Assembly (NCBI GenBank): GCA_031380445.1
Contig: JANNGC010000885.1
Location: 1 to 26,382, forward strand
Source of the DNA: Pedosphaera sp.
GTDB taxonomy: Bacteria; Verrucomicrobiota; Verrucomicrobiia; Limisphaerales; SIBH01
Length of the DNA: 26,382 nt
Direction of reading: 5' to 3'
Positions 1 through 19,859 of the stretch are shown here, in pieces. Each line of letters starts with the position of its first letter. Position 1 is the first letter of the stretch. The position numbers were made by a program, and so were the translations under genes. The notes under the pieces were generated by a model. That model saw only the letters and a list, made by a program, of their open reading frames with translations. It did not search any database and had not been told where the DNA came from.

Positions 1-206
1 TCCGCCTTCAGCCGCCGCCGCACGCGCAGAATGTCGCCCGGACGATCCAGCAGCTTCCTCAGGCGTGACTCCTCATCGCTGTGCCGTCCCCAAGGTTCCT
101 CGACGACCTCGCAGCCCAGCTCGCGCAGGGTGCGCGCGAGCAGCGGCAAAATTTTCGGGAACGGCCCGCGAATCCCCGGATGGCAGGTGAGCATCAGGAT
201 GCGCAT
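1..206 (-). CDS. Probable glycosyltransferase (GT4-like N-terminus), truncated by the window edge
   Basis: My translation from ATG at 206: MRILMLTCHPGIRGPFPKILPLLARTLRELGCEVVEEPWGRHSDEE..., open to the edge. An MRILML start followed by 'L..LG.EV' is typical of the GT-B first strand and helix. Overlaps the upstream stop by 13 nt. Not in the ORF track. Confidence 0.6.
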   Translation of the reverse strand, partial: MRILMLTCHPGIRGPFPKILPLLARTLRELGCEVVEEPWGRHSDEESRLRKLLDRPGDILRVRRRLKA

Positions 207-1351: not shown

Positions 1352-1376
1352 GGGAGAAGGAGCGGAGGCCGGCGGA

Positions 1377-2123: not shown

Positions 2124-2133
2124 GCAGTTACTT

Positions 2134-3357: not shown

Positions 3358-4214
3358 CAGTTGAAAGGTTTGCGGGCGATGACGCAGACGCCGGAGCCAA
3401 CCGGCGGGAACAGGGATTTGGTCAGCGCGCCAAGGCGGTAGCACGACTGGCGGAATCCGAGCTTTTGATACAGCCCACACAAACTCGGAGCGGCGCTGAC
3501 ATACACCTCGTCGAGTCCGGCCCGCTTCACCAGGTCGCCCAAAGTCTTCGTCGAGAAGTGGCACCAGTGCGATGTGGGGTCCAAAGTTTTGCCCCGCGAA
3601 AACCATTCCTGCGGCTGGTGAACATTCGGAACATCAATCAGCAAAACGCCGCCCGGCTTGAGCAGTCGGGCCATCTCGCGCGCCACTGCCACCGGAGTCT
3701 GAATGTGCTCGAAGACCTGGTAGCTGATGATGGCGTCAAACTGCCCGGCATGGTTCGCGTAGAACTCATCCAGCCGGCCCGTCAGCACCCGGTCAAATTT
3801 CCAATGGCGGTTGGCCGCCTCGACCAGGCCGCGATTCATGTCGAAACCAGTCACCGCCCAGCCGGACTGGAGGGCCGCGTTCACCATCCCGCCGGCGCCG
3901 CATCCGAAATCGAGCAGCTTTTTACCCGGCGTGAACCGTTCGAGCAGGTGCAACAGGAACCGGCCTTGCCGATCCATCGCGGCCAGCATGTCCGGGCGGA
4001 AATGGCGGTCCAGCGCGCCGCGATTTTCGACTTCATCGAGATAGGTCGTGGGCTGCGGGTTCGTGTAGATCATGCCGCACCCCAGGCAGCGCGTGACCCG
4101 GTGCTGCTCCGGCCCGTAGTGCGACGGAGCCATGACGTGGAGCACGGCGTCTGATGCGCCGCACAGCGGACACGGCACCTCAACGAGCGCGCCGGAATGT
4201 TGCTTCGCGTTCAA
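3354..4214 (-). CDS. Class I SAM-dependent methyltransferase with N-terminal CxxC...CxxC zinc ribbon
   Basis: CPLC...CLGC, then LLDFGCGAGG, FDAIISYQVFEHI, LKPGGVLLIDVPN. Start uncertain; TTG 4214 assumed. Confidence 0.88.
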   Translation of the reverse strand: MNAKQHSGALVEVPCPLCGASDAVLHVMAPSHYGPEQHRVTRCLGCGMIYTNPQPTTYLDEVENRGALDRHFRPDMLAAMDRQGRFLLHLLERFTPGKKLLDFGCGAGGMVNAALQSGWAVTGFDMNRGLVEAANRHWKFDRVLTGRLDEFYANHAGQFDAIISYQVFEHIQTPVAVAREMARLLKPGGVLLIDVPNVHQPQEWFSRGKTLDPTSHWCHFSTKTLGDLVKRAGLDEVYVSAAPSLCGLYQKLGFRQSCYRLGALTKSLFPPVGSGVCVIARKPFNC

Positions 4215-4218
4215 ATGT

Positions 4219-5385
4219 TCAACGGGCGCGGCTGGCGACCGGCAAGGATTCCCACGCCCCGACCAGTTCGCGGGCAAACTGCGGCATCACCACTTCCGGG
4301 CGGTGCTTTTCAAAATAGTAGCGCCGCGCCTGTTCAGATTGTTCACACCACCGGGCCGGAGACGAAAACAGTTCGGTGAACGCCCGGACAAAAGCCGGCA
4401 CATCCATCGCGACCGTGCCGAGATTTAGCCGCTCAATCAATCCGTCCGGATCGAACGACGAAACGACCGGCCGGCCATGACTCCACGCTTCGAGAAACGT
4501 GTTCGGAAATCCCTCATATTCCGAGGTGCAGCACACGCACGAGGCGCGCTGGTAAAGGTCCGGCATCTGATCACGTCGCAGCACGCCGCGCCAGATCACG
4601 TTCGCGAGCGCGGCCGCCTGCGCGCGGAGACTTTGCCCGTAGGCGATCCCGTCGTTGGCCACGGCGAGTTCAAACGTCACCTGCGGCAGCCGGCGGGCGA
4701 TCTCGAGCAGCCACTCCAACCGTTTCAGCGGCGCGGCCCGTCCGATCCACGCGACGTGGGCCGGCTTCGGCGGCGGCAATTCGGCAAACTCTTTTTCCGA
4801 CGGGCCGGGACACGGCATGGGCAGCGGGACGGCGACCAGGCCGAAGCCTTCGCGCAGCGCGCGCTGCTGACGGCTCGTCTGCACCAGAACCTTGTGCGCG
4901 CCCGTCAGACCGCGCCGATACAAAATGCGCTCGTAGGCTTTCGGCATCACGGGGAGTTTCGGATCACACGCCACATCGGAAGCCACGGAATAGACAAACG
5001 CGCGCCCGTGCCGCCGGCACCAGTCCGCCGCCAGCCCGGTCACGTACTCGGCGGAGTTGTGATAATAGATGTCGGCATCAGCCCGGCGCAGGGCCGCGTA
5101 GAGGCCGGTCAGGCGCGGATGAAAAAAACGCAACCCCGGCAGGCCCTTTTCCGACGGACAGATCGCGATGACTTTCACACCGTCAATCTCGCTCACCGGC
5201 GGCTGGCCTTCGTCCCAGGTGAGCATGCTCGTCGGGTAGCCTTGCGCCGCGAGCCAGCGCGCGGCACCGGCCGTCTGGTGTTCCGCCCCGCCGATGAATC
5301 CGTTCTTCCCGCCGCACAGCGCGCCGTAGGCGTTGTGGGCAATGAGACAGATCGCGGGCTTCGTGGGGCTTCCGTTCACCATCAT
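4219..5385 (-). CDS. Glycosyltransferase family 4, about 388 aa
   Basis: GGAEHQ, WIGRAAPLKR, CTSEYEGFPNTFLEAWSHGRPVVS. ATG at 5385 overlaps the upstream TGA (ATGA). Confidence 0.9.
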   Translation of the reverse strand: MMVNGSPTKPAICLIAHNAYGALCGGKNGFIGGAEHQTAGAARWLAAQGYPTSMLTWDEGQPPVSEIDGVKVIAICPSEKGLPGLRFFHPRLTGLYAALRRADADIYYHNSAEYVTGLAADWCRRHGRAFVYSVASDVACDPKLPVMPKAYERILYRRGLTGAHKVLVQTSRQQRALREGFGLVAVPLPMPCPGPSEKEFAELPPPKPAHVAWIGRAAPLKRLEWLLEIARRLPQVTFELAVANDGIAYGQSLRAQAAALANVIWRGVLRRDQMPDLYQRASCVCCTSEYEGFPNTFLEAWSHGRPVVSSFDPDGLIERLNLGTVAMDVPAFVRAFTELFSSPARWCEQSEQARRYYFEKHRPEVVMPQFARELVGAWESLPVASRAR

Positions 5386-6107
5386 GCGCGCACCAAGGTG
5401 AACCGTTCCTTCGAGGGCGTGAGCCGGCCTTCCGGCAGCCCGCGCAAAAAGTGCGCGACCTCGTCCGGCATGAACCGGAAATGCCGCGTGGTCGCCGGAT
5501 TGAAATTCAGAAAAATCCGTCCGCCCGGACGCAGCCGGTTGCGACAGTCCTCCAGAAAAAATTTCCATTCCTCCGGTCCCCACACGTCCTCGCGCCAGTG
5601 CAGGTCAAAGCAGATCGAGAAGGCGGTGATCAGATCAAACGGCCCGCCCAGATCGGGCAGGCGCTGGAACTTCTCCACCCGCTGCCCGACCCGGGGGATT
5701 TCGAGCAGCTTCACGAGATCGTTGTACATCGGGTTATCCTCGAGATCGATCCCGAGCACGTCGTGTCCGCTCGTCTTCAAGGCAAACAGGAAGTAGCCGG
5801 AGCCGCAGCCGATGTCCAAAACGCGCATCGGCTTGGCCCCGATCAAACCGAGCCGGCCCGCCGCGTGCGCGACTTCTTCAACGTGCGGCTCGAGGTCGAG
5901 ATACTTTCTCGAGTTGTCCCCGAAGTCGCGGTGCTTCTCGACGAGCGACTGGAGGCCGCGTCCCTGAATGTCGGCCACGACCCGTTTCGCCAAGGCGCAC
6001 TCCGCCCGGTAGCGGGAGGAACCCACAGTGCGAACGAGCCTCGGCAGACCGGTTCGTTTGAGGACGTTTTTTACGGAAGCAAGGGTGCTCACAAATTTTT
6101 TCGGCAA
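5382..6107 (-). CDS. Class I SAM-dependent methyltransferase, about 241 aa
   Basis: VLDIGCGSGYF, VLGIDL, FDLITAF, LRPGGRIFL. Start TTG 6107 or GTG 6092. Confidence 0.85.
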   Translation of the reverse strand: MPKKFVSTLASVKNVLKRTGLPRLVRTVGSSRYRAECALAKRVVADIQGRGLQSLVEKHRDFGDNSRKYLDLEPHVEEVAHAAGRLGLIGAKPMRVLDIGCGSGYFLFALKTSGHDVLGIDLEDNPMYNDLVKLLEIPRVGQRVEKFQRLPDLGGPFDLITAFSICFDLHWREDVWGPEEWKFFLEDCRNRLRPGGRIFLNFNPATTRHFRFMPDEVAHFLRGLPEGRLTPSKERFTLVRA

Positions 6108-6123
6108 GGAGAGGTGTGTCCGC

Positions 6124-7095
6124 TCATTTTGAAATCATCGGAGCACGACGCCATTTGTTCCGCAGGCGCGAGCCGACTTCCGCGCAGACCCCGCGCGGAC
6201 TGGTCGTCATCGCCTCGCCCAGAAATTTCAGCGCCTGGCCATGACCGCCGCGCTTCCACGCGTGCTTCGCCACGTCCACCAAGCGGCGGGCCTGCTGCTC
6301 GTCCCATTCCGCGTCACTCACCGCCACGGGCAGGCCGGTCATCGCGCGCAAAGTCGGCACGCGCTCCAGACGAAATTGCTCCGTCGCGCCCACGGTTTTG
6401 GATGCGCCGTGAAAACGGAATTTCCCCAGCCGCTCGTCCACGTAACTGACCTCCAGGCCGCGCGCGAGCAGCCGCACCATCATGTGATAGTCCATGCAGT
6501 AGCGCAGCTTCTCGTCCACGCCGCCGAGCGCCTGCAACTCCGCGCGCGGCAGAAACGTGCCTTGTTGCGCCCAGCCCAGATGGTCGCACTCCCAAAAGCG
6601 GACGAAGTTTTTCAGCGTCTGGTTTCCGGGCTTCATCACGTCGAACGGTCCCGCCGCGTTAAAAAATTCCGTGGCACCGGAGACGATGCGACCGGGGTGC
6701 TGCTGCCACGCCCGGGCCACCGTCCACAACGCGCCCGGCAGCAGCAAGTCATCCGAATTGATCCAGTTGAAAATGTCGCCGGTGCAGCGGGCCAGTCCTT
6801 TGTTGATGGCGTGGCTCTGGCCGCGATCTTTTTCGCTGGCCCAGAAGGTGAGCCGGTTTTCGTAGCGCCGGATAATCTCCGCGCTGCCGTCCGTGCTGCC
6901 GCCGTCCATGACGATGTATTCGAGCTTCGGATAATTCTGCGCGAGCACCGAAAGGATAGTCTCCTCGATGAAGTCCGCCTGATTGAACGACGGCGTGACG
7001 ATGCTGATGCGCGGCAGCGCGGCCAGCGCCTCGGCGGTGAGCGCGGGGGGCGGATCACTTTCCCATGGCCAGCCTTTTTTGGGTTGCGAGGACAT
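6124..7095 (-). CDS. Glycosyltransferase family 2 (GT-A), about 323 aa
   Basis: [51 protein letters not shown] (DxD-like). ATG at 7095 overlaps the upstream stop (TGATG). Confidence 0.93.
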
Positions 7096-7997
7096 CAGTT
7101 TTCTCCGCGTTGCAGCACCACGAAAATGTGATCCGGCCAGGTCGCGGTGCCGACCGCGTGCGAAAACATTCTCCGGCCCGTGAACCGTTCGCTGATGCGG
7201 CCGATTAAAATTTTCACGAACTGCCGCCAGCGTTCGGCGACAAACATTTTTCCATACGCCCGGCGTGAATGACTGAAGCCCGTGCTGCGCACCAGCCGCA
7301 GTCCGGATTCCTTCGCCGCCCACGCGAACCAGCGGCGGTTACAAAACGAGAGGTGCTGCGGCAGGTAATACCAATAGCTCAGGCGCGACAGCCGCCACGG
7401 CAGTGCGTCGCTGTTGCCCGTGGTGATGATGAGCTTCCCGCCGGGCTTCAGCCAGCGCGCGAGCTTCTGAAGGTCCGCGAGCGGATTGGGCAGATGCTCG
7501 GCCACGTCCATGAGGTAAATGAAATCGAAGCGCGCGTCCGGCGCGGTGGCGGTGTCGATGGTTTCACCGAACAACTGGATGCCGCGCTCGGCCATCATCT
7601 GCCGCGCCTCACGGCTCGGCTCGATGCCGAACTTCGCCACGGTGTTAGGCAGGCGTTGCAGGAAGTCGCCACGAAAGCAGCCCACGTCGAGCACGGTCAG
7701 CGGACGCGTGCCCGCGTCTGTGACTTCCAGCGCGAGATCGAAATCTCGGCGGCCCACGCTCTCCGGCAAAAGATTCGCCGGCAGTTCCTCGTACATCTCA
7801 CTGGCATCGTTCGCGCGCGCGGGCTTGTCGAGGAAGAGCAGGAAGCAGTTCGGACACTCGAAGAGATCGCCGCCATCCGCGAAGCCGTGATCCGCATGGC
7901 GCGACGCCACCGCACCCAGCGCGCGCGGATGACGCTCGCCGCAGGCCGGGCAAGGCGGCTGCGTGGAGCGTAAAGTTTTTTCCTCGGTGGCGGTCAT
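7095..7997 (-). CDS. Class I SAM-dependent methyltransferase with N-terminal zinc ribbon, 300 aa
   Basis: CPAC...[43 protein letters not shown]. Confidence 0.88.
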
Positions 7998-8127: not shown

Positions 8128-9708
8128 TCAACTGATCACCTTCGCAGCCATTGGCTCGCCGCCCCACGAGAGTTTCGAACGGACTTTCCTCTTCATCGCC
8201 TCGGGCAACACCCAGTTCCAATAAATCGGCAGCGTAATCAACGTCGCCACCGCCACGCCCACCGGCAGGGCGATCAACGGCTTCGACCAGAACAGCCAGC
8301 GCGCGAGCAGCAGCACCGCCGTGGCGGGCAGCACGTAAAGCACCGGCTCGGCGAGCGCCTTCCAGAAATACTCGCGGCCCGACAAGTTCAGGCGGCGGCA
8401 CACGTAGAGCGGAACGTAAATCGCATTCAGCAACGCGAGCGGCGCGCAGACCGCCGCCGCCACCCACGCGAGGTCCAAGTGAAAAACCATCAGCGCCAGC
8501 GCCACCAGCACCGCGCTGATCGCGCACGCGATGAGGTGCATGATGGCCGGGCGTCCGTGGAGATTCATGCCGCCCAGAATGCCGATGGTTGGCGCCTGCA
8601 CGATGTAGGTGGTGTAGCCGAACGCCAGCAGCGCGAGAACGATGCCGTTTTTGTAATCCGGCCCCATCCACGCGACCAGCACCGGACTGCCCATTGTGAC
8701 GAGCACGACGGTCACGGGCAGCGTCAGGCAGCAGGCGTAACGCGTGGCTTTGATCACGAGGTCTTGAATTTTTTGATGATCGCCGAGCGCCTGGAGCGAA
8801 CTCACCGACGGCACCAACACGGCGGACATTTTGAAAATGAGCGAGCGCGTTTGCAGCACGAGACTGCGCGGCCGGGCGAAGAGCGCGAGCGCCGCCGGCC
8901 CCATCGCGGCGATGATGAGCACGTTCACGGTCTGGTTCAGCAGCAGGTCAGCGATTTGCGGGACGAAGGATTTGCCGCCGAAGTGCATCATGCCGCGCGC
9001 GGTCTTCGCCTCGGCGTGGCGCGGGCTGAGACTGAGGCCGGGGCAGACGCGATAGGCGAAGAACATCCGCGCTGCTGCGGGCAACAGTTCACCGAGCAAT
9101 TGCACCACGGCCAGGCCGCGCAGTCCGCCGCCCGCGAGCAGCACGCCCACCATCCCGAGCACGGTGATGAAATAGCCGCCCGCGTAAATACCATTGTGAA
9201 TGCCCCACTGGTGGCAGCCGGTGAGCACGCCGCCATAAACGGCGGACGCGGTTTGCACCGCCGTGGCGAGGCCGAGACCGATGACGACCCAAGCGAGTTC
9301 GTTTTCAAAAGGTCGAAGATGTTTGTCGAGCAGATGCGGCAGCGCGAAGGCCGTGCCGAAGCTCAACAGAACCATCAACGCCGCCATCGCGAGCAGGACG
9401 AGGGAGATGGAACTGACGCAACGATTGACACCCGCGATGTCGCCGGTCGCCTGATGCGTGGCCACATAACGGTTGATGGAGCCGACCACGCCCATCTGCA
9501 CGAGGCCGAAGTAGGCCACGATGGTCCAGCCGAAATCCCAGAGGCCGAGCATCTCCTGCCCGAGCTGGTGATCGATCAGCCGGGGCATGATGAACCCGGC
9601 GGCGATGAAGACCAGTTGCGAGAGCCAGCTCACGAGAACGTTGCGGACCAGATGCTGGCGGCCGCTGACGTCGGGCGCGGGCGGAGATTTCTGTTCGGTG
9701 GCGGTCAC
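8128..9708 (-). CDS. wzx: Wzx-type flippase / polysaccharide export membrane protein, about 526 aa
   Basis: RNVLVSWLSQLV...PRLIDHQLGQEMLGLW start pattern, many hydrophobic segments, MOP-family layout. GTG 9708 chosen because longer starts overlap the upstream gene. Confidence 0.85.
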   Translation of the reverse strand: MTATEQKSPPAPDVSGRQHLVRNVLVSWLSQLVFIAAGFIMPRLIDHQLGQEMLGLWDFGWTIVAYFGLVQMGVVGSINRYVATHQATGDIAGVNRCVSSISLVLLAMAALMVLLSFGTAFALPHLLDKHLRPFENELAWVVIGLGLATAVQTASAVYGGVLTGCHQWGIHNGIYAGGYFITVLGMVGVLLAGGGLRGLAVVQLLGELLPAAARMFFAYRVCPGLSLSPRHAEAKTARGMMHFGGKSFVPQIADLLLNQTVNVLIIAAMGPAALALFARPRSLVLQTRSLIFKMSAVLVPSVSSLQALGDHQKIQDLVIKATRYACCLTLPVTVVLVTMGSPVLVAWMGPDYKNGIVLALLAFGYTTYIVQAPTIGILGGMNLHGRPAIMHLIACAISAVLVALALMVFHLDLAWVAAAVCAPLALLNAIYVPLYVCRRLNLSGREYFWKALAEPVLYVLPATAVLLLARWLFWSKPLIALPVGVAVATLITLPIYWNWVLPEAMKRKVRSKLSWGGEPMAAKVIS

Positions 9709-9715
9709 GGAGAAA

Positions 9716-10333
9716 TTATTGAGTTCGCGCCGCAGCGTCTTTTGGATCGTTGCGCCGCACGAGGCGCGCGGGATTGCCCGCCCAGATTTCATCGGCCAGC
9801 ACTTCGCCCGTCACTACACTGCCCGCTCCGATGACCGCACGATCGCCGATTCGAGTGCCTTTCAACACGAGCACATTCGCGCCGAGAAAAACATCGTCGC
9901 CGATGATGACGGGTTTGCGGGCGATGGCACTGCGGTCATTCGCGCGCCGTGCCGCCGCGTCGAGCGGGTGAAAATCCGTATCCCAGATGCAGACATTCGC
10001 CCCGCACGTCAGATGCGAGCCGATGGAAATATCCAGCGCGCAGTAAATGGACACGCCGGAGAAACCGCAGCCGTCGCCAATGGTCAGCTTCGCGCCCGGC
10101 TCCACGCTGATGGAGCAGCCTTTGGACAGGCCGGAAAGATTTCCCTCCGGCACGCTGATCATCGTGACGTGGGAACCAATCTTCACGCGCGCTTCAGGAG
10201 CCACGTCGAAAATAGGGCGGCCGATGAGGCGCAGCTTGTCGCCGATCTGAACCTGCGGATTCCGCCGCGCAAAGCGGCGCAGCCATGCGTGCGTGCAGCG
10301 TTGCGAGACGAGGTTGAAGAAGCGGGAGAGCAT
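9716..10333 (-). CDS. Left-handed beta-helix (hexapeptide) acyltransferase, probable sugar O-acetyltransferase, 205 aa
   Basis: IWDTDFHP, PVIIGDDVFLGANVLVLKGTRIGDRAVIGAGSVV, IWAGNPAR. Confidence 0.9.
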   Translation of the reverse strand: MLSRFFNLVSQRCTHAWLRRFARRNPQVQIGDKLRLIGRPIFDVAPEARVKIGSHVTMISVPEGNLSGLSKGCSISVEPGAKLTIGDGCGFSGVSIYCALDISIGSHLTCGANVCIWDTDFHPLDAAARRANDRSAIARKPVIIGDDVFLGANVLVLKGTRIGDRAVIGAGSVVTGEVLADEIWAGNPARLVRRNDPKDAAARTQ

Positions 10334-10346
10334 GCTGCGAGCGAGG

Positions 10347-11546
10347 TCAGATCGTCGGAAACTTCAACGGCGGCCACGGAATGGAAACGCTGGCGCGGCC
10401 CGTTTCATCGGTGGCATTCCGTTGGGTCGGAACAGAGCAGCCATTGAGGCGCAACTCGTTCACGCCGACATCGGTGTAAATCGTCAACCCCTGAAGCTCC
10501 TCGCTCGGCCACTTTGAATCGCAGGTGATGTTCACCGCGCCAGACTTGGCGTCTTCCGCGATGGAGAGCGTGGAACTTTCCGTCATCCGCACGTAGTCGA
10601 GCGCGCGGCGCGTCGTGGTCACGAGAATTTTCCCCGCGTCGGAATACTGCTTGAGCAAATGCAGCGCGCGAACCGTGGCCTCGGGAAAAACGCGGTCTGG
10701 CACTTTGCCGAGATGCGTGTAGAGCAGGCAGACGCCCTCACGGTCCACAAGTTGATCGAGGAAGCGCGTGGTCAGCACTTCCCCAAGGCCCGCGCCCGTG
10801 TCGCCGGTGTCCACGCCGGCGGGATGCGGGTTGCAGCGGAGAAATTCCACGGTGGGCTGACCGTCGCGGAGTTGCGAGGGATGGAGCAGGCGGTTGCCAG
10901 CGTGGGCGCGGTATTTCTCATTCCCCGCGTGACCGAGCATCTGCTTCGCGGCTTCTTTCAAAATGGTTTTGCCAGACGCCAGCGGCGCGGAAGCCCGCCA
11001 CAGACCGCCAAAGTTCGCTTCGGTGTTTTGTCCGATGACGCTGGTCACGCGCCCGCGCCAGACGTAGCGCACGCCGTGGCGCAGCGTGAGGTCGGCGTGA
11101 TAGGCGGCGTGGCCCAACTCATCGCCGTGGCCCTGCATGATGTCCGCGCCGAAATTCGTCACCGCCTGCGCGTGATCGATCCAGACTTTGAGCGCGAGCT
11201 GGTGGCGCTCCAATTCTTGCAACGCCCGCTCGACGTGCGCGCGACTCACCGCGAGATCGCCGTACGAGTGGAGGCAGTCAATGTGACCGCTGCGCATCAG
11301 GGTGCGGGCCATTTCGCGTCCCGCGTCGTCCGTGTTCCAGTAGGCGAACTGATTCGGCGGCATGTCGAAGTAGATCGAGTTGCCCACTTCGAGGCCGACG
11401 CCTGCGCCCATCGTCGTCTGCTCGCGCGTGTTCAGGAAACGCATCTGCTCCGCGTACACCTGCGCGTCGGCCGTTTCGTCGAGGTCGCTGCAAATCGCGA
11501 GCATGGCGCGGTACGGATAGGGAAAGCGGCGCAGCGTCACAGGCAA
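10347..11546 (-). CDS. Hypothetical protein, possible NodB/CE4-superfamily polysaccharide deacetylase, 399 aa
   Basis: Clear in-operon ORF. Candidate metal and catalytic motifs ICSDLD (motif 1-like), LHSYGD (motif 2-like), WIDH and LYTHLG. The family call is tentative. Confidence 0.5.
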   Translation of the reverse strand: MPVTLRRFPYPYRAMLAICSDLDETADAQVYAEQMRFLNTREQTTMGAGVGLEVGNSIYFDMPPNQFAYWNTDDAGREMARTLMRSGHIDCLHSYGDLAVSRAHVERALQELERHQLALKVWIDHAQAVTNFGADIMQGHGDELGHAAYHADLTLRHGVRYVWRGRVTSVIGQNTEANFGGLWRASAPLASGKTILKEAAKQMLGHAGNEKYRAHAGNRLLHPSQLRDGQPTVEFLRCNPHPAGVDTGDTGAGLGEVLTTRFLDQLVDREGVCLLYTHLGKVPDRVFPEATVRALHLLKQYSDAGKILVTTTRRALDYVRMTESSTLSIAEDAKSGAVNITCDSKWPSEELQGLTIYTDVGVNELRLNGCSVPTQRNATDETGRASVSIPWPPLKFPTI

Positions 11547-11547
11547 G

Positions 11548-12564
11548 TCAGACGTAGCCGTAACGGCGGTTCAGGTCGCCCGCCACACGGTCAAAGATTT
11601 CCAAATCTTCGGGGCGGAGATGAGTTTTCCAACGCTCGTCCAGGCGAATCTCGGAGGTCGTGTCGAAGCGCATGCCGTTGCCGATTACATGCTGCGCTCG
11701 TGCGCGAAAATCCAGGTTCGCGCGCGCCGGATCCAAACCTAGGAAAGTGCAGAGGCGTCCGAGCGTCTCCTTGGGATTCGCACACAGATCCTCGTAGCGC
11801 ACTTCGGTCCATTGCGAGCGGGGCAGTTGCTGGAGCAGACAATCTGCGGCCTCGTTGCTGCGCTTCCACTCGTTGGCTGCGTCCGCCATGTTCTGCCGGA
11901 CCGAGGGACGTTTCAGGCCCGTGCCTCCGCCGCGCAACGCCGGATCCGTGGAATCGGCAAACCCCCAGTCATCAAGGTAAGTAAGCGACACGGCCCGCCC
12001 GTCGCGCAGGCAGCGGACGATTTTGATGTCGAGGGATTTGAGCCGCAGAAGATATTTGAGGCGCAGCGCAATCTTCGAGGAATCCACCACGATGGCGGCT
12101 CCGGTGGCGGCCTGTAACGATTCGATGAGCGCCAGGTTGCGCTGGTTGGTCCGGCCCAGGTGACGTCGCCACGAACCGGACAAGCTGAGCGCGAGGTCGC
12201 GGACGGTTTCCAGCGCCGCGCCCCGGTGCAGCGGAGCCAGCAACCGCTGCACGTAGGCACTGTCGAGGCCGAAGATACTGGTCCCCGCATTCGTGATGTC
12301 GAACGAACCGATGCCTTTGTGCGACATCTGCTGCGTAACTGTTTTCCAAAAATCGCACTGCCGGATCGGCGCGCGGCAGGAACACCGGTAGGCATCGGGA
12401 TCACCCAGGCTGGTGGCCTTGAGTTCACCCGCCGTGCAGGCCTCCGGATGCGCGCCCAGCAGCATGGCCAGCAGCGTGGATCCGGAATGACTGGCCGCGA
12501 GCAGGTAGGCCAGGCGCGGACGGGCGGCGACCGGAACGGGCGGCGATGTCGGGGCGTTCATCAT
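11548..12564 (-). CDS. PAPS-dependent sulfotransferase (P-loop sulfotransferase family), 338 aa
   Basis: 5'-PSB-like LAASHSGSTLLAMLLGAHP, VVDSSK, 3'-PB-like LRDGRAVSLTY, VRYEDLCANPKETLGRLCTFLG. ATGA-coupled to the upstream gene. Confidence 0.85.
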   Translation of the reverse strand: MMNAPTSPPVPVAARPRLAYLLAASHSGSTLLAMLLGAHPEACTAGELKATSLGDPDAYRCSCRAPIRQCDFWKTVTQQMSHKGIGSFDITNAGTSIFGLDSAYVQRLLAPLHRGAALETVRDLALSLSGSWRRHLGRTNQRNLALIESLQAATGAAIVVDSSKIALRLKYLLRLKSLDIKIVRCLRDGRAVSLTYLDDWGFADSTDPALRGGGTGLKRPSVRQNMADAANEWKRSNEAADCLLQQLPRSQWTEVRYEDLCANPKETLGRLCTFLGLDPARANLDFRARAQHVIGNGMRFDTTSEIRLDERWKTHLRPEDLEIFDRVAGDLNRRYGYV

Positions 12565-14006
12565 GCGGAGTAAGGATGAGAAACCACTTCCACGTCCTCG
12601 GCGGAATCCTCCTCCTCCGGGCTTTCCTCAAACAGCGGCACACCCGTCAGGAGGGATCGCTCGCGTTCGACATAGACCCGCAGCATCAGACCGATGGCGC
12701 ACCACATGCCGACGGAACCTTCGCGCGGATAAAAACTCTGGCTGCCCATCGCCGCGATGAGCAGCGCCGAGACCAGCGAAAAGCAAACGCCGCCCACCGC
12801 CGCATAGATCGGGTCGGTGCGATCCTTCAGCACTCGATACGAGAAGAAAAAGAAGATGGCATACATCGGGATGACGATCACAAAACCGATCAATCCGTTG
12901 TCGAGCAGCATTTCCAGATAGGCGTTGTGCGGATGAGGAAAGGTTTCGCCGCCTTGGTAGTCATCCATGATTTTCTGATAAATGCCGGTGCGAATCATGG
13001 CCTGCCGCCCGTAGCCCATGATGGGCGAGGCAAATATTTTGGGAATGACATACGACCAGGCAATGGTCCGCCCCGAGGTGACTTCATAGGCGTCCGTCTG
13101 CGTCTTCATCGGGCCTTCGCCCTGGCCGAAACCCTGGAGCATCCGCTCCCGCACGGCGGGCAGAAAAGTCATCACGGCCAGGACCGTCAACGGAATAATG
13201 GGCAGGAACTTCCGCCAGCGCAGCAGGCAAATCATCAGACCCAGCAGCCCCCAGGTGACATATCCGGCCCGGCCGCCGGTCAGCGCCTGGCCGAGCGCGA
13301 TGATCGCGGCGGCGGCGAGGATGAGCAGTTGTGCGCGCCGGGTCTTCGCCAGAGTGATCGCGGTGAGCATGGCCCAGGACGCGCCGGAGAACATCATGGA
13401 CAGGTTGACCCGATGATACCCGACAGACCGCGCCAGCACTTTGTTGGCGCGGCGTGAAAGGTCAGCGCCGCTGGCCGTCGCCGAACTCAGCGGCATGTGT
13501 TTGATGACTTGCAGGGCGAGCACAAAATACACCGAAAGGATGCAGGCTACCCCGATGACGGTCCTTTGACGGCTTCGACAGCCGTCGAAAAGCAGCAGCC
13601 CCGGCAGCACCCACTTCACGCAATTGATCAGGTAATCGCTGATCGCATAACTGATTCCGAATTCCTCGAAGTCGTCGTGTTTCAAACTTTCAAAATCCAT
13701 CAGCAGCCGGGCCACTCCCCAGAGGATCACGAACAGATACCCGGCACCGAGCAGCATGAGGTATCGGGGCATGTCCCACACCCTGCCCTCGTGACGCCGG
13801 TTCCGCCTCCACGCCAGCAGCACGTTCAGCATCAAAAAATTCCACGGATTCAGCCCCTGAATGCCGCCGATGCTCTTGGGCATGTCGGGATGTTCGAGCA
13901 CCGCCATCAGACAAATCGCCGCGCAGAGCGACGCGAACCAGTTGCGCCAGGCGTAAATGGAAAAGCCCAGCACGAACAGGAGGCAGAGGATGACGCGGAT
14001 GCTCAC
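12561..14006 (-). CDS. wzy: Wzy polymerase / O-antigen ligase family (Wzy_C) membrane protein, 481 aa
   Basis: Polytopic hydrophobic profile with LTGGRAGY, SGRTIAW, SPIMGYG and HPHNAYLEMLLDNGLIG. Polymerase versus ligase or OTase cannot be resolved by eye. Confidence 0.8.
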   Translation of the reverse strand: MSIRVILCLLFVLGFSIYAWRNWFASLCAAICLMAVLEHPDMPKSIGGIQGLNPWNFLMLNVLLAWRRNRRHEGRVWDMPRYLMLLGAGYLFVILWGVARLLMDFESLKHDDFEEFGISYAISDYLINCVKWVLPGLLLFDGCRSRQRTVIGVACILSVYFVLALQVIKHMPLSSATASGADLSRRANKVLARSVGYHRVNLSMMFSGASWAMLTAITLAKTRRAQLLILAAAAIIALGQALTGGRAGYVTWGLLGLMICLLRWRKFLPIIPLTVLAVMTFLPAVRERMLQGFGQGEGPMKTQTDAYEVTSGRTIAWSYVIPKIFASPIMGYGRQAMIRTGIYQKIMDDYQGGETFPHPHNAYLEMLLDNGLIGFVIVIPMYAIFFFFSYRVLKDRTDPIYAAVGGVCFSLVSALLIAAMGSQSFYPREGSVGMWCAIGLMLRVYVERERSLLTGVPLFEESPEEEDSAEDVEVVSHPYSA

Positions 14007-14027: not shown

Positions 14028-15137
14028 TCAGACCGCAGCGAGCGCAGACAGAATTCGCTCCGAAGTTTTGCCATCCCACATTTCCGGCAGGCGCCCAAGG
14101 CGCGGACTGGCGGCGAGGACTTGGTTCAAATCCTCGGCGAGCGTGCTGACTTGCGTGAGGCGGTTGCTGCCGACCGTGATCGTAACCGGGCGCTCGGTGT
14201 TCGGACGCAGCGTGAGGCACGGCGTGCGGAAGTAGGTGGACTCCTCCTGCAAGCCGCCGGAATCCGTGAGCACGAGCCGTGCGTTTTCCGTGAGGCACAC
14301 CGAGTCATGGTAGCCGACGGGATCGAGGAGATGGCAGCCGCTGTCGCCGTTGAGTTGAAGGCCAAACTCGGAAAACATTTTGCGCGTGCGCGGATGGACG
14401 GGGAAGACGACGGGCGTTTTGGCGGCCAGCCGTTTCAATTCGCCCGCGATGGCCGTGAGGCTCGCGCGGTCGTCCACGTTCGCGGGGCGGTGTAGCGTGA
14501 CGTAAAGAAAATTTCCCGGCGTGACGCCGCACTGCTGAAGAATTTGGCTGCGCCGCGCCTGTTCCAGATTCGCGACGAGCGAATCGATCATGATGTTGCC
14601 GACAAGTTTGATGCGCGCTTCCGGCACGCCCTCGCGACGGAGATTTTCATTTCCATCCTCGGACGGCGTGAGCAGCAAATCGGCAATCGAATCCGTGACC
14701 AGGCGGTTGATTTCCTCCGGCATGGTGCGGTCGAAACTGCGCAAGCCGGCTTCGACGTGCGCGACCTTGATGCCGAGTTTCACCGCCACCAGCGTGCAGG
14801 CCACGGTGGAGTTCACGTCGCCGAAGACCACGACCCAATCCGGCTTTTCTTCGAGACACACTTTCTCAAAGCCGACCATCACGCTCGCGGTCTGCGTCGC
14901 GTGCGAGCCGCTGCCGACGCCGAGGTTCACGTCGGGCTTCGGGATGCCCAGCTCGCGGAAAAAAACCTCCGACATCGCGTCGTCGTAATGCTGCCCGGTG
15001 TGGACGAGGCGGCAGTCGAAGCGCGCGGTGGCGCTGGTGTCCGCGTTGTAACGGCGCGCGGCGTGGATGAGCGGCGCGACCTTCATGAAGTTCGGCCGCG
15101 CGCCGGCCACGAGAATCAGTTTCAAAGTCTGAGGCAT
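14028..15137 (-). CDS. wecB: Non-hydrolysing UDP-GlcNAc 2-epimerase (WecB/WbpI family), 369 aa
   Basis: GARPNFMK, VHTGQHYD, FGDVNST, HVEAGLRSFDRTMPEEINR, TDSGGLQEE, RPNTERP, WDGK. Confidence 0.95.
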   Translation of the reverse strand: MPQTLKLILVAGARPNFMKVAPLIHAARRYNADTSATARFDCRLVHTGQHYDDAMSEVFFRELGIPKPDVNLGVGSGSHATQTASVMVGFEKVCLEEKPDWVVVFGDVNSTVACTLVAVKLGIKVAHVEAGLRSFDRTMPEEINRLVTDSIADLLLTPSEDGNENLRREGVPEARIKLVGNIMIDSLVANLEQARRSQILQQCGVTPGNFLYVTLHRPANVDDRASLTAIAGELKRLAAKTPVVFPVHPRTRKMFSEFGLQLNGDSGCHLLDPVGYHDSVCLTENARLVLTDSGGLQEESTYFRTPCLTLRPNTERPVTITVGSNRLTQVSTLAEDLNQVLAASPRLGRLPEMWDGKTSERILSALAAV

Positions 15138-15253: not shown

Positions 15254-17281
15254 TCACTCCGCCTGAATGCGCGCGATGTCATCAATGTGATCCACGACGA
15301 CTTTCAGCGTCTTGGTGGTCACACCGTTCGCGTGGCCGTTGCGGGAGCGGCGGGCGAGTTTGATTTTGTGTTCCACGTCCTCGGTGGTCTCGATCATCAC
15401 GAGCCGGCCTTCCTGCTCGAGGTGGTGATCAATCGCGCCGATTTTTCCACGGAAGATGCTATAGACCGGCACGCCGAGCGCGGCGGCCTCGCGGTTCATG
15501 GTGCCGCCACCGCTGACCACCAGATCGGAATGCCAGAGCAGATTCAAACCATCCACCGCCGTGCGCGGAATGACGGTGCGCGCCGCGCCGAACCATTGCG
15601 GCCAGTTCTTGCGGATGAGTTCGCCCTGCTTCGTGTTGCGCGGGAGCAGCACGATGCGGACATCCTTTTCCTTGCAGGCCAGTTCCATGAAGCGCACGAA
15701 CAGCGCCTCGCTTTCAGGGTTGTGATAATGCGCCTCGGTCGCTGGCGGGCGCACGGTGATGAGCATCTCCTCGGAGCGGATGCCAAGCGCACTCAGGAAA
15801 TCCGGGTCGCGCCGCATCCGGCTCACGTACACATCTTCCTTGATGCCGGGATATTTGCGGATGCGTTCAGGCGGGGCGCAGAGGGCTTCGTTCGGAATCA
15901 CTTCGGGCACCATCTCCCACGTCGGGCGCATGAGCGGCGGGTATTGCGCGAACTCGTAGTCGGCCATCAGCACGGTGGGAATGCCGAGCAGATTGCAAAT
16001 GATGAGCTGCGACCGCGCGCCGTGCGACAGCGCCAGATCAGGTTTCTCACGCCGCACGAACGGCAGCAACTGGCAGGCGCGGTAGAACAGGCCGAGCACC
16101 TTGACCAACTTGTTCTTGCCGTAGTGCCGTCCGACTTTCGTGTAGCGCACGCCTTTCTGGTCGGCGAGTTCGCACACTTGAAACGCGTCACGCGCCGTAA
16201 GCACGACTTCAAAGCCGCGCGCGCGCAACTCGTCAATGATCGGCTCGAAGAACGGGACGTGCGGCGTGTTGTCGAGGTCGATCCAGATTTTCTGGCGCTT
16301 CGCGGGCGTGGGACGGGGGGGTGGTGCGACGCCGTTCCCATTCAATACAGGTGAAGCGACAAGCGCGGGCGCGAGTTGCTTCCGGGCCAGAGCGGCGACT
16401 TCATTCGGCAGCGCGGCCCAGTATTGCCCCTCGTATTTCTGCTTCGCGTAATCGAGGAACTCCGCGTAGCGCGCGATGGGATACGACTGGCCTGGCTCGC
16501 CCGGCCCGTTGAGATCCATGTAGTCGGGATGCACGTCGAGCATGGCCATGCCGCCGTGCTCGGCGATCCAGTCGAGCTTCTTCTTCCAAATCTCGATGCC
16601 CTCCTCCTGCAAGAGCAGGAAGAGCGTGAAATCTTGCGCGAGCGTGTAGGGCAGCTCGACGTAACCGGGCCGGCCCGGCGCAGAAACCCAGAACGGGAAA
16701 ATTGTGTCCACACCGTCGGGCTGCGGCTCGAACGGATCGGTGTCGAACGTGGAGCAGTCGTAATCCGCCTCGAGATCGTGCAGCCATTCGAGATTGTGGT
16801 GCATGAAGCCGGAGCGGAAACCGGTGGCCTGCCATTCGCGCAGGTAGCGGTTGATGTTCGCGGCGTTGCGGCGGAATTCGTCGCGCGACCAGTAGAGCTT
16901 GCCGTCGTGGTGCAGATCATGAACACCGACTTCAAAACCGTTCTTCGTCAGGAACGCACGGAACTCGGGCGGGACACGGTAGTCACCTTCCGGCACAAAG
17001 TTGAACGCGGAGCGGAAGCCGCGCGACATCTCCAACTCGGCCAAAGCGCGGCAGCGTTCCAGACCGCCCGCACGCTCAACGTCGTGCGTGAGGACGAGCG
17101 CGAATTTTTTCCCGTCCGGCCAGCCCTGCCAGCCGGCGGGCGGTTTTTCGGTGCCGGGCTTGATCGGCCATTCGTGCGCGAAGGCGCGCTGCCGCCGTCC
17201 CGCGCGCCAGCGCCGGAACGCGAGCCGCAGGCCGTGCGGCATGAACGGTTTCAGCCGGTAATATGTGCGGAGGAGGAACAT
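15254..17281 (-). CDS. Two-domain protein: N-terminal polysaccharide deacetylase-like domain plus C-terminal DUF354 (GT-B-fold) domain, 675 aa
   Basis: N-terminal part: LVLTHDVE, EVGVHDLHHDG, GFRSG, ELPYTLAQD, LDVHPDY. Pro-rich linker. C-terminal part: KIWIDLDNTPHVPFF, SHGARS, VVSGGGTMNREAAALGVPVYSIF (DUF354-type). Confidence 0.75.
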   Translation of the reverse strand: MFLLRTYYRLKPFMPHGLRLAFRRWRAGRRQRAFAHEWPIKPGTEKPPAGWQGWPDGKKFALVLTHDVERAGGLERCRALAELEMSRGFRSAFNFVPEGDYRVPPEFRAFLTKNGFEVGVHDLHHDGKLYWSRDEFRRNAANINRYLREWQATGFRSGFMHHNLEWLHDLEADYDCSTFDTDPFEPQPDGVDTIFPFWVSAPGRPGYVELPYTLAQDFTLFLLLQEEGIEIWKKKLDWIAEHGGMAMLDVHPDYMDLNGPGEPGQSYPIARYAEFLDYAKQKYEGQYWAALPNEVAALARKQLAPALVASPVLNGNGVAPPPRPTPAKRQKIWIDLDNTPHVPFFEPIIDELRARGFEVVLTARDAFQVCELADQKGVRYTKVGRHYGKNKLVKVLGLFYRACQLLPFVRREKPDLALSHGARSQLIICNLLGIPTVLMADYEFAQYPPLMRPTWEMVPEVIPNEALCAPPERIRKYPGIKEDVYVSRMRRDPDFLSALGIRSEEMLITVRPPATEAHYHNPESEALFVRFMELACKEKDVRIVLLPRNTKQGELIRKNWPQWFGAARTVIPRTAVDGLNLLWHSDLVVSGGGTMNREAAALGVPVYSIFRGKIGAIDHHLEQEGRLVMIETTEDVEHKIKLARRSRNGHANGVTTKTLKVVVDHIDDIARIQAE

Positions 17282-17290
17282 CAGCGGAGC

Positions 17291-17363
17291 AATGACGAAT
17301 GACGAATGACGAATGGAGGGAGGGCGCGCGACGGCGTTATTGGGTCATTCGTCATTCGTCATT
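17291..17363. repeat. Perfect 20-bp inverted repeat made of tandem AATGACG heptamers (STRR-like)
   Basis: (AATGACG)x3 plus AATG at 17291-17315. GTCATTC-GTCATTC-GTCATT at 17344-17363 is the exact reverse complement of 17291-17310. Confidence 0.9.
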
Positions 17364-17646
17364 TGGATTTCACACAGGCAGACTTCGTCCCCGTCAATTC
17401 GCAGTCACGCGATTGCCTGGCGTCGTCTCGTGTTGTTCTCATGGGGGTGAAATGCGAAAGGCGCGCGGCGCAAAGTCCGTGCGTTCGATCCCACCTTTTT
17501 GCGCCCCGGATAATTCCGGGGCAACTCTCCATCGTCACATTTTCCAGCTTGCGACAATGTTTTCGTCTTCTAACTCAGGAAAATTTCCGCCGCGCGCAAG
17601 GCGGCCCGGCCAGGTTGGCGGCGTGGTTCGCACACCGATGGCCGTT

Positions 17647-19851
17647 TCACACCCCTTGCTGCAACCACTTGGGCACCGGGTCGCGCACCTTGTTCAGCAC
17701 CGCGCTGACGGGCGCCTTCGAGCGCGCGAGCAGACGGCTGGCCTGCTTGACCGACTCCTGCGTGTCCTTCTCCGACTCCACGACGAGGATGACCAAATCC
17801 ATCATGCCGGCGAGGCGCGCGGTCATGGTGGTGGGCGTGGTCGGGGGCAGATCGAAAACTATGTAGTCGTAATCGCACACGCGCAGCTTGGGCACGATGC
17901 GCGCGAGCTGCTTCGGCAGGCTCTGCGTCGCCGGATCGTTCGGGTTGCCGGCGGTGGCGACGTAGAGATTCTGCAAAACTTTGCCATTCGAGCGTTTGTC
18001 GAGTTCGAGCGCGTCGGCCAGACCGCAGGCGAGTTCGCCGCGATAGAATGGATGCGCCGCCTCGGCTTCGTAATTCAAATTCAGCAAGAGCACGTTGCCG
18101 TCACCCGTCTCGGAAAGCGCGCCCGCGAGACCGGCGGCGATGGACGTGACCCCTGCGTTGCCGCCGCAACTGGTGATGCCGATGAGTTTGGGCTTGTGCG
18201 GGTCGCCGCCGAAGTGCGTGAGCGTGGCGTCGCGCACGCCGTCAATGTAGCGGCGCAGCGGATGCTCGGCGTCCCACGTCTGGTGCAAGTCCGTGGCGGT
18301 CGCGGGCAGGCCGGCTTTCTTGTCGTCCTCGTCTTCCTCATCCTTCGGTCCGGGGAAGGGCAGCATCTTCGCGTGACCGTTCAGGCCGAGTTTGGGAATG
18401 GACAGGAACAGCGGCATCTTCAGCTTCGTCTCGATTTCCGAAGCCTTGCGAATGGTGTGATCCACAAACATCTCGATGAAGAACGCCAGGCCGAGACCGG
18501 CGAGCAGGAATCCGACGAACGTTCCGATGACGAATTTGAGGCGCTGCGAGACGTTCGGCGCGGGCGGCGAAGGAGTCTGCGCGGACTGGATGTTCGACAT
18601 CTTGGCCTCGGCCATCTTGTCGTCGAACTTCGAGGCCTGGAGTCCGTTCACGACGTAGTCATAATTTTTCTTGTTCAGATCCAGCTTGCGCTGCACGTCG
18701 GCGATGGACGCCTCCAAGCCGTCAATGGTGGACAGTTCGGCGCGCACTTCAACGATCTGGTTGCTGATGACGTTGAGTTTCGATTCCGCCGCGATCAGCA
18801 GACGCGGATTGGTGCGGGCTTCGAGCGGAGAGCCGGGCAGGATGGGCGCGGCGACGGGCAGAGCGGTCAGTTTCGGAAATTCCTTCTCCAGCGCGGCCTT
18901 CTTCTTTTCCTGCTCCTCGATCTGGCGGCGCAAGGTCACGACTTGCGGGTTTTCGTCGGTGAATTTCGCGGTCAGGTCGAACTCGTTCGCGCGCATGGAT
19001 TCGAGCCGTCCGAGGACGACGCGATACTCATTGAGCTTCGTGGCGGGCAGCGCGCTGGGCACGCTGTTCGTCTCGGGCGTCGGCGCGGCGGTGGTGCCAA
19101 GCACGGCGCGCAAGTCGGCGATGTCCGCCTCGGCGTCATTGTGCTTCTGACGCAGCCGAGCCAGTTCGGCCGCGAGGTTGTTCTTCGACTCGACCACGGA
19201 GACGACGCCGGCCTTGCGGTTGAGCTTCTGCAAGTCCGCCTCGTTTTCGTGGATGCGGGTCAGGAGATCATTGGCCTCTTCGGAGAGGATGCCTTCGTAG
19301 TTGCGCCCGGTGTGGTGGATCTTTTTGTGGCGCTTGAAATACTCCTCGATGATCTCGTTCAGCACGTTCTGGCAGATCGTCGGATCCCGGTGCGAGAAGC
19401 GCACCTTGATGGCGTTATTACGATGCGGGTTGTTCAGCTCCAACCCCTTGAACACCACTTCGGCGGCCGAGGCGACGTTGCTACCCTTGCCCTTGCCGAG
19501 CAATTTCTCCGGGCCGACGCGCCGCGCCACTTCCTCGCAGAGATCGTAGCTGGTGAGAATTTCCATCTCGGTGTTGATGACGTTTTCACCGCCGAAATCC
19601 GGCATCTTGGTCTGCGAACCAGCGGCCTCGACCGAACGTGTGGAGGTGACGTAACGGACAATCAGCTTCGCCTCCGACCAATACAGCGTCGTCTGCGTGA
19701 AGAACACGATGAGGCCCGCGAGCAGGCCCGCCGCGAGACAGCCGAGGATGACCCACTTCTGGCGGAAGAGCACGTAGTAGATGTCCGTGAGCTTCATGCC
19801 CAGGGCCGGCACCTCGAACGCTTCCTTCTTGTTGTGTTTAGCTTCCATCAT
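17647..19851 (-). CDS. wzc: Wzc-like polysaccharide co-polymerase / chain-length determinant with degenerate BY-kinase domain, about 734 aa
   Basis: TM1 (KWVILGCLAAGLLAGLIVFF), long coiled-coil periplasmic region, TM2 (FVIGTFVGFLLAGLGLAFF), then P-loop-like ITSCGGNAGVT and Walker B YDYIVFDLPP. Start at ATG 19851 or 19848. Confidence 0.9.
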   Translation of the reverse strand: MMEAKHNKKEAFEVPALGMKLTDIYYVLFRQKWVILGCLAAGLLAGLIVFFTQTTLYWSEAKLIVRYVTSTRSVEAAGSQTKMPDFGGENVINTEMEILTSYDLCEEVARRVGPEKLLGKGKGSNVASAAEVVFKGLELNNPHRNNAIKVRFSHRDPTICQNVLNEIIEEYFKRHKKIHHTGRNYEGILSEEANDLLTRIHENEADLQKLNRKAGVVSVVESKNNLAAELARLRQKHNDAEADIADLRAVLGTTAAPTPETNSVPSALPATKLNEYRVVLGRLESMRANEFDLTAKFTDENPQVVTLRRQIEEQEKKKAALEKEFPKLTALPVAAPILPGSPLEARTNPRLLIAAESKLNVISNQIVEVRAELSTIDGLEASIADVQRKLDLNKKNYDYVVNGLQASKFDDKMAEAKMSNIQSAQTPSPPAPNVSQRLKFVIGTFVGFLLAGLGLAFFIEMFVDHTIRKASEIETKLKMPLFLSIPKLGLNGHAKMLPFPGPKDEEDEDDKKAGLPATATDLHQTWDAEHPLRRYIDGVRDATLTHFGGDPHKPKLIGITSCGGNAGVTSIAAGLAGALSETGDGNVLLLNLNYEAEAAHPFYRGELACGLADALELDKRSNGKVLQNLYVATAGNPNDPATQSLPKQLARIVPKLRVCDYDYIVFDLPPTTPTTMTARLAGMMDLVILVVESEKDTQESVKQASRLLARSKAPVSAVLNKVRDPVPKWLQQGV

Positions 19852-19859
19852 CAATCGCC

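Follow-up and report, generated by a model that had tools for sequence, protein, structure and literature searches.

The 26,382-nt window analysed here is one whole contig (JANNGC010000885.1) of a Pedosphaera sp. metagenome-assembled genome (MAG; 5.29 Mb in 1009 contigs, 88% complete) from the Verrucomicrobiota, and nearly all of it, from 194 to 24471, is occupied by a single polysaccharide locus on the minus strand. Within this locus, a gene for a 399-aa protein (ORF399, 10347-11546) follows a gene for a sulfotransferase of the type that depends on 3'-phosphoadenosine 5'-phosphosulfate (PAPS; 11548-12564). The TGA stop codon of the sulfotransferase gene (11550-11548) and the TTG start codon of ORF399 (11546) are separated by 1 nt, and the two genes lie between those for a Wzy-type polymerase and a Wzx flippase, exactly as described in an earlier reading of the sequence alone. 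That reading went on to propose that the pair constitutes a split N-deacetylase/N-sulfotransferase (NDST). Our comparison of about 150 related gene clusters points elsewhere: with a probability of about 0.55, ORF399 is a cytoplasmic de-N-acetylase with the fold of carbohydrate esterase family 4 (CE4), which belongs to an unnamed family and edits the lipid-linked repeat unit in concert with a family GT4 glycosyltransferase of the kind that transfers N-acetylhexosamine (HexNAc), in a sulfating cassette. The constant companion of ORF399 is GT4, and that of the sulfotransferase is Wzy.

ORF399 has homologues in more than 2000 clusters at 90% identity (best E-value 1e-236), all of them unnamed or annotated as 'hypothetical protein', and 847 representatives at 50% identity. 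Identities of 55-60% extend across Verrucomicrobiota, Planctomycetota, Acidobacteriota, delta- and gammaproteobacteria and a Chlorobium MAG. No sequence match was obtained in Pfam, NCBIfam or the PDB, and PF01522 was not matched even at an E-value of 10 when 26 family members were tried. In an AlphaFold2 model built with 26 homologues (pLDDT 88, pTM 0.91), strands and helices alternate as far as about residue 322, and a β-rich C-terminal domain, which forms a β-sandwich, comes after them. As judged by VIA-align and Foldseek, the modelled fold is a deformed (β/α)7 barrel of the CE4/NodB type. The best VIA-align match was the deacetylase domain of PelA (Z 13.6, 286 residues aligned), followed by the putative polysaccharide deacetylase 4dwe (Z 13.0), 1z7a (Z 12.0), a GH57 amylopullulanase (Z 11.7), an insect chitin deacetylase (CDA; Z 11.5), HP0310 (Z 10.9), ArnD (Z 10.7), Agd3 (Z 10.3) and GH38 (Z 9.3). 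Foldseek returned about a dozen 'NodB homology domain' proteins from the AFDB clusters (E-values from 1e-10 to 1e-4) and no PDB entry at an E-value of 0.001 or below, such that the fold was resolved only by the exhaustive VIA-align search. Features from ESM place ORF399 near the PF01522, DUF2334 and DUF2194 clusters, which we treat as a lead only. The deacetylase domain of human NDST1 (9f6z) shares the fold at Z 8.4 and ranks 33rd, well under the bacterial CE4-like matches. The expected resemblance to CE4 enzymes was thus borne out at the level of structure, with CE4-type deacetylases as top matches, and NDST1 as a distant one.

Conservation was assessed in an alignment of 94 family members reaching down to about 30% identity. 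ORF399 carries the motifs S-D21-L-D23-E-T, G-H88-I-D90-C-L-H93, D124-H125, H150-A-D152 and T-H278-L-G-K. Eleven polar residues are at least 90% conserved in the family (D21, D23, D90, H93, H125, H150, D152, Q173, N218, R237 and H278), and nine of them form an invariant set (D21, D23, D90, H93, H125, H150, D152, R237 and H278), while E24, H88, D97 and D124 vary family-wide. According to the DSSP elements of the model, most conserved residues follow the β-strands of the barrel; the invariant histidines 93, 125, 150 and 278 lie on different strands. Two aspartates after strand 1, several histidines, one arginine and a further aspartate make up a set that appears closer to a metal amidase of the CE4/YdjC type than to GH57 or GH38.

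With regard to its location, ORF399 has no hydrophobic segment (the highest Kyte-Doolittle mean over 19 residues is 0.64) and no signal peptide. Some members of the family, originating from independent assemblies, are fused to other proteins of the pathway. In some, the ORF399 part stands behind a GT4 glycosyltransferase of the cluster termed GT4a (P0129 and P0131), and in others it is attached behind the last helices of Wzx (P0123 and P0125, as well as single open reading frames in loci L045 and L081). The lack of a hydrophobic segment and the fusions of some relatives to GT4 and to the C-terminus of Wzx lead us to place the action of ORF399 in the cytoplasm and probably at the membrane. The Wzx fusions also bear on a different possible substrate. 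If ORF399 acted on a nucleotide sugar, for example by converting UDP-HexNAc to UDP-HexN, it would supply an unusual donor for GT4a, and this idea is compatible with a soluble, cytoplasmic protein that adjoins GT4a and in several loci stands beside NDP-sugar epimerases or dehydratases. The Wzx fusion points instead to a finished lipid-linked unit at the membrane, and we know of no CE4-fold enzyme acting on a nucleotide sugar. We consider action on a nucleotide sugar very unlikely.

The partners of ORF399 became apparent from its gene neighbourhoods. We collected 80 genome loci seeded on ORF399, clustered the neighbouring open reading frames and named the clusters by Pfam and NCBIfam; a locus counted as well flanked if it extended 8 kb or more on each side of ORF399. 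A common cassette with the order c17 or DUF354 fusion, WecG/WecB, Wzy, sulfotransferase, Wzx, GT4b, GT4a, ORF399, GT4a recurs across phyla, most likely shared by horizontal transfer. In the variant present in Verrucomicrobiota, the window included, ORF399 directly follows the sulfotransferase. The Wzx cluster is present in 44 loci and the GT4b cluster in 53. Of the 74 non-redundant loci, 53 have GT4a no more than 300 bp from ORF399 and 66 have it within 10 kb, as do 39 of the 40 well-flanked loci; the corresponding 10-kb values for GT4b are 53/74 and 34/40. Distant homologues of ORF399 (32-45% identity) retain the GT4 neighbour, and one out of three has a sulfotransferase. The nearest named models of GT4a, all scoring below their cut-offs, are BshA, MshA, stp2, GlcNAc-PG synthase and PglH; BshA, MshA, GlcNAc-PG synthase and PglH are HexNAc transferases.

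Several observations weigh against assigning ORF399 as a de-N-acetylase that works with GT4. The protein has neither TFDD nor H(S/T)xxH, the motifs that are canonical for CE4 and give the Asp-His-His spacing; D21-x-D23 and H93-S-Y-G-D97 stand in their place. The fold, a conserved Asp/His set and the co-occurrence described below do stand up to the refuting conditions set in the sequence-only reading. An hhalign register that pairs LDET with FDDG and HSYGD with HSxxH is undermined, because E24 and D97, the would-be equivalents of CE4 metal ligands, are not conserved across the family. When family alignments of 26 and 94 sequences were compared by hhalign with CE4 alignments built from the source genus and from CE4 genes of the cassettes, probabilities stayed below 1%, and neither hhalign, Pfam nor PDB searches tied ORF399 at the sequence level to any characterised deacetylase. 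A single metal site at the top of the barrel, uniting the conserved residues, is suggested by their placement in the model rather than by distances. In the window itself, ORF399 does not adjoin a GT4 gene, its neighbours being the sulfotransferase and an acetyltransferase. Finally, the same fold occurs in glycosidases, as the matches to GH57 and GH38 show.

This last point feeds an alternative in which ORF399 is no deacetylase at all but a glycoside hydrolase or transglycosylase resembling GH57 or GH38, or a non-hydrolytic subunit of GT4a. Besides the structural matches to these families (Z 9-12), the highest-probability Foldseek match in the PDB, a weak one, is a GH57 4-α-glucanotransferase, the canonical CE4 motifs are missing, and a tight link to GT4a that includes fusions would suit a subunit. 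Against this stand the top structural matches and almost all AFDB matches, which are deacetylases or NodB-homology proteins, and the invariant set, which is rich in His and Asp like that of metal amidases. GH57 catalysis uses a Glu/Asp pair, and the sole highly conserved glutamate of the ORF399 family is E53 (87%). A cytoplasmic glycosidase within a biosynthetic operon also has little precedent. We therefore regard a function other than deacetylation as unlikely. ORF399 may house an Asp/His metal site that is built differently from that of canonical CE4 enzymes.

We then considered whether ORF399 and the sulfotransferase form a dedicated pair. In the split NDST originally envisaged, ORF399 would de-N-acetylate a hexosamine and the translationally coupled sulfotransferase would N-sulfate the amine, yielding a heparinoid-like, N-sulfated polymer. 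Sulfotransferase presence was scored by profile hidden Markov model labels for both the counts and the tree described below, as the cluster labels miss true cases such as those in L055 and L082. A sulfotransferase lies within 10 kb of ORF399 in 43 of 76 non-redundant and in 28 of 41 well-flanked loci (57-68%), and in addition to the 1-nt spacing in the window, 11 of 74 non-redundant loci place the two genes within 300 bp, an adjacency that also recurs in many loci from metagenomes. In the reverse test, 80 metagenome loci were seeded on the sulfotransferase. Of these, 17 extended at least 9 kb beyond it on the downstream side, and 10 of the 17 had ORF399 there on the same strand; among the 12 loci extending 3-9 kb, the number was 8 (about 60%). 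Both genes are rare in genomes: ORF399 turned up in 4 of 61 relatives, each from the genus of the window, and of 401 genomes sampled from the phylum, only the source MAG yielded the sulfotransferase. Chance alone would consequently bring them together far less often than observed. What unites them is a common cassette and not a dedicated pairing, since each of the two also occurs without the other in equivalent cassettes. A sulfotransferase is missing from 13 of the 41 well-flanked ORF399 loci, and ORF399 from 7 of the 17 sulfotransferase loci that extend at least 9 kb downstream. Locus L124, with DUF354 fusion, WecB, Wzy, sulfotransferase, Wzx, GT4b, GT4a and GT4a, even reproduces the order of the window without ORF399, and L165, L187 and L191 resemble it. 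On a tree of ORF399, sulfotransferase presence switches at least 8-9 times, compared with a mean of about 14 for shuffled data, and sister loci differ in having the gene. Ten long or offset matches scanned among 150 listed representatives contained no fusion of ORF399 with a sulfotransferase; fusions with GT4 and Wzx were seen. As ORF399 partners mainly with GT4 and not with the sulfotransferase, an NDST-type pair is not the best reading of the locus.

The sulfotransferase itself clearly belongs where it had been placed, scoring 54.4 bits for PF13469 (curated cut-off 27) and 27.1 bits for PF00685 (cut-off 22). Its SHSGST(LL) loop resembles a 5'-phosphosulfate-binding (5'-PSB) loop and, in alignments with the CurM and OLS sulfotransferases, is the counterpart of RSGSTLL. 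After these, tyrosylprotein sulfotransferases (TPST), StaL and Teg are the nearest solved relatives, and all of the nearest solved relatives (CurM ST, TPST, StaL and Teg) are O-sulfotransferases. Although this kinship does not favour a split NDST, the enzyme could on sequence grounds have either N- or O-specificity. Proteins of the subfamily mostly comprise 324 aa and are 65-70% identical between phyla (best homologue at an E-value of 1e-209). They share four invariant cysteines (C43, C61, C63 and C70) in an insertion just after the 5'-PSB loop, and this insertion (residues 43-70) may be a zinc-binding or disulfide module. In nearly all related loci carrying both genes, whether seeded on ORF399 or on the sulfotransferase, wzy directly precedes the sulfotransferase gene, and the Wzy cluster is present in 41 of the ORF399-seeded loci. 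Wzy polymerases are usually highly variable. Conservation of the couple despite this variability suggests that one sulfated repeat unit has been maintained and spread by horizontal transfer.

Since the sulfotransferase needs PAPS, its site of action is cytoplasmic, as is that of ORF399. A check of PAPS supply gave a mixed result. CysN is encoded in the source MAG (561 bits) and also in three congeners (G004, G007 and G008). The ATP-sulfurylase family PF01747 was not found in the source MAG. The adenosine 5'-phosphosulfate (APS) kinase PF01583 was found neither in the source MAG, which is fragmented and 88% complete, nor in the 96%-complete congener G007, which bears the cassette; it is present in the cassette-bearing congener G008 and in G003, a genome that gave no match to ORF399. 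This leaves two explanations, an unassembled cysC or an unusual source of PAPS. That no APS kinase was found in the source MAG counts against an NDST-like pathway, and so does a second CE4-like domain encoded in the same operon. This domain (16292-17281, minus strand) forms the N-terminal half of the protein encoded at 15254-17281, the C-terminal half of which is a DUF354 domain. It is more canonical than ORF399, with the CE4-like motifs THDVE, HDLHH and HPDY, and its model (pLDDT 70) matches 3rxz (Z 16.7, 24% identity), 1z7a (Z 16.3), HP0310 (Z 15.8) and ArnD (Z 13.3), while Pfam matched nothing in this half. The fusion of CE4-like and DUF354 domains adjoining WecB is conserved in cassettes of the Verrucomicrobiota type. 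For N-sulfation, this domain could provide a free amine just as readily as ORF399. One further point speaks for a split NDST: in Pontiella, a member of the Kiritimatiellae within the Verrucomicrobiota, 75-80% of the sulfate of the exopolysaccharide (EPS) was measured to be N-linked, and according to the authors, who leave the responsible genes unnamed, no sulfotransferase for glycosaminoglycans is known from prokaryotes (PMC7356697). Taking together the tight spacing, the frequent co-occurrence, the fold shared with NDST1 and this precedent on one side, and the facultative link, the at least eight switches on the tree, the lack of fusions in the matches scanned, the O-sulfotransferase kinship, the second CE4 domain and the APS kinase not found in the source MAG or G007 on the other, we consider a split NDST distinctly improbable.

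If ORF399 is the GT4-associated de-N-acetylase that we favour, the following sequence of events can be envisaged. At the cytoplasmic face of the membrane, a HexNAc-transferring GT4 enzyme would extend the undecaprenyl-diphosphate-linked repeat unit by an N-acetylated amino sugar, from which ORF399 would then take off the N-acetyl group by metal-assisted hydrolysis, following the logic of MshA/MshB, BshA/BshB, PIG-A/PIG-L and ArnC/ArnD. The freed amine might remain as a cationic group or be acylated again; in some loci it might be sulfated. As a separate, optional module of the cassette and not an obligate partner of ORF399, the neighbouring sulfotransferase would modify the same repeat unit.

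Known systems provide parallels for individual parts of this scheme. In the MshA/MshB, BshA/BshB and PIG-A/PIG-L couples, a retaining GT4 enzyme adds GlcNAc and a dedicated metal-dependent deacetylase frees the amine at once. In place of a CE4 barrel, MshB, BshB and PIG-L have the LmbE/PIG-L fold, and they act on small molecules or glycosylphosphatidylinositol rather than on a Wzy repeat unit. ArnD, the deformylase of undecaprenyl-phosphate-linked 4-deoxy-4-formamido-L-arabinose (Und-P-Ara4FN), has a CE4 fold like ORF399 and acts on a lipid-linked sugar at the cytoplasmic membrane face, after the glycosyltransferase step and before flipping, which is the same logic as that proposed for ORF399. 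It differs in belonging to another family, in its length of about 300 aa, in lacking a C-terminal β-sandwich and in serving a lipid A modification pathway. PelA, PgaB, Agd3/CE18, HP0310 and insect CDA share the (β/α)7 barrel with ORF399 (Z 10-13.6, 220-290 residues aligned); in PelA and 4dwe the barrel is likewise followed by a C-terminal β domain. PelA-type deacetylases further resemble ORF399 in residing in exopolysaccharide loci and in having conserved polar residues rich in Asp and His. In contrast to them, ORF399 shows no detectable sequence similarity, neither TFDD nor H(S/T)xxH, no signal peptide and, in some relatives, fusions to cytoplasmic GT4 or Wzx termini. The completed polymer, outside the cytoplasm, is the substrate of PelA, PgaB and Agd3. 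NDST1 is similar to the window in that a CE4-like deacetylase and a PAPS sulfotransferase serve one glycan, the genes being adjacent in the window. Its domains are fused into an obligate pair, whereas the link in window-type loci is facultative and the sulfotransferase is of the PF13469 type, nearest to CurM, TPST and StaL.

Sulfation as such has precedents in comparable loci. Synechan (xss) of Synechocystis PCC 6803 is a sulfated polysaccharide made by the Wzx/Wzy pathway (PMC8205485), and another has been predicted in Actinoplanes (wps-1, PMC13390465). These two loci and the cluster predicted in Pontiella F21 resemble the window as Wzx/Wzy-dependent loci with embedded sulfotransferases, to which the window adds methyltransferases; the parts of the accounts available for the three clusters do not mention an ORF399-type protein. 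Because bacterial Wzx/Wzy loci with sulfotransferases have already been described, the sulfation aspect alone is not new. For an ORF399-type protein or for the cassette, no published description was found in the literature searched. The family, with its 847 clusters at 50% identity in Planctomycetota, Verrucomicrobiota, Acidobacteriota, Desulfobacterota and Proteobacteria, has no name, Pfam model or characterised member. A cytoplasmic CE4-fold protein tethered to GT4 or Wzx would, if our assignment is correct, represent a new family of the carbohydrate-esterase type and introduce a new editing step of the repeat unit into the Wzx/Wzy pathway before flipping. The nearly invariant couple of Wzy and sulfotransferase, together with conserved GT4 enzymes in several phyla, predicts a sulfated polymer shared by soil and sediment bacteria. 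Were the pair an NDST after all, the N-sulfated, glycosaminoglycan-like exopolymers of Verrucomicrobiota (Pontiella) and, according to work cited in the Pontiella study, of granular sludge would for the first time have a genetic explanation (PMC7356697). The chemistry is open to testing, because a cultured carrier of the cassette exists, namely Desulfopila aestuarii DSM 18488 (locus L071).

Some cassettes contain additional genes. In Planctomycetota, the cassette often continues with genes for asparagine synthase, a canonical CE4 protein and exosortase/EpsI, along with four others (L079:13781-15238, L031:12562-14115, L082:17718-19769, L009:14721-16223), which encode a DUF362 protein, a PaaK/CapK-like adenylate-forming enzyme, a heparinase II/III-like protein and a sulfatase. 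The sulfatase has an N-sulphoglucosamine-sulphohydrolase C-domain, and the PaaK/CapK-like ligase beside ORF399 could re-acylate a freed amine. Cluster c17 (e.g., L009:298-1443) consists of 381-aa proteins without Pfam or NCBIfam match and precedes WecG, Wzy and sulfotransferase in many loci. Its ESM features are weakly (<0.9) close to those of (α/α)6 toroid proteins, including one cluster with the glucuronyl C5-epimerase domain in 10% of its members, and provide a lead only.

In the window, all remaining genes of the locus are likewise encoded on the minus strand. The Wzx/Wzy pathway set is complete and consists of the initiating phosphoglycosyl transferase (Bac_transf, 23665-24471; PF02397, 189.5 bits), the Wzx flippase (8128-9792; PF13440), the Wzy-type polymerase upstream of the sulfotransferase (12561-14006; PF04932, 56 bits, and Wzy_C) and a Wzz/Wzc-like chain-length regulator at the head of the operon (17647-20028; PF02706, 36 bits). 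The latter combines a Wzz domain with a weakly P-loop ATPase-like C-terminus. That the locus makes amino sugars, as assumed from the outset, was corroborated by profile matches for WecB, a UDP-GlcNAc 2-epimerase supplying ManNAc (14028-15137; PF02350, 336 bits; TIGR00236, 302 bits against a cut-off of 210), a DegT aminotransferase (20951-22147), a GFO/IDH/MocA oxidoreductase (22571-23662) and hexapeptide transferases, one of them within 22053-23162. A FemAB-like acyltransferase is encoded at 19860-20954, and the DUF354 domain of the 675-aa fusion protein (137 bits) is GT-B-like. Four pairs of methyltransferase and glycosyltransferase genes occupy 194-7997; they include a GT4 enzyme of cluster GT4b (4219-5583; PF13692, PF00534) and two of cluster GT4a (2134-3606; PF00534, PF13439, and 194-1351; PF13692, PF00534).

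A WbbJ/WcaF-like hexapeptide-repeat acetyltransferase (9716-10333; PF00132, PF14602) is encoded directly downstream of ORF399. This position is kept only in L005, L006, L007 and L051, which belong to the Verrucomicrobiota variant. In L007, a close relative, the acetyltransferase gene is broken into two open reading frames (11170-11850) by a frameshift or an assembly error. An 859-aa open reading frame on the plus strand (17299-19878) was rejected as a gene; it has no family match, the opposite strand holds the Wzz/Wzc-like gene, and it is probably the antisense shadow of the latter in high-GC DNA. Divergent from the locus, a gene for a large protein of secreted type with repeated Big_9 and cadherin-like domains (24749-26380, plus strand) runs off the contig, and a similar cadherin/PKD protein is encoded near a Planctomycetota cassette (L002).

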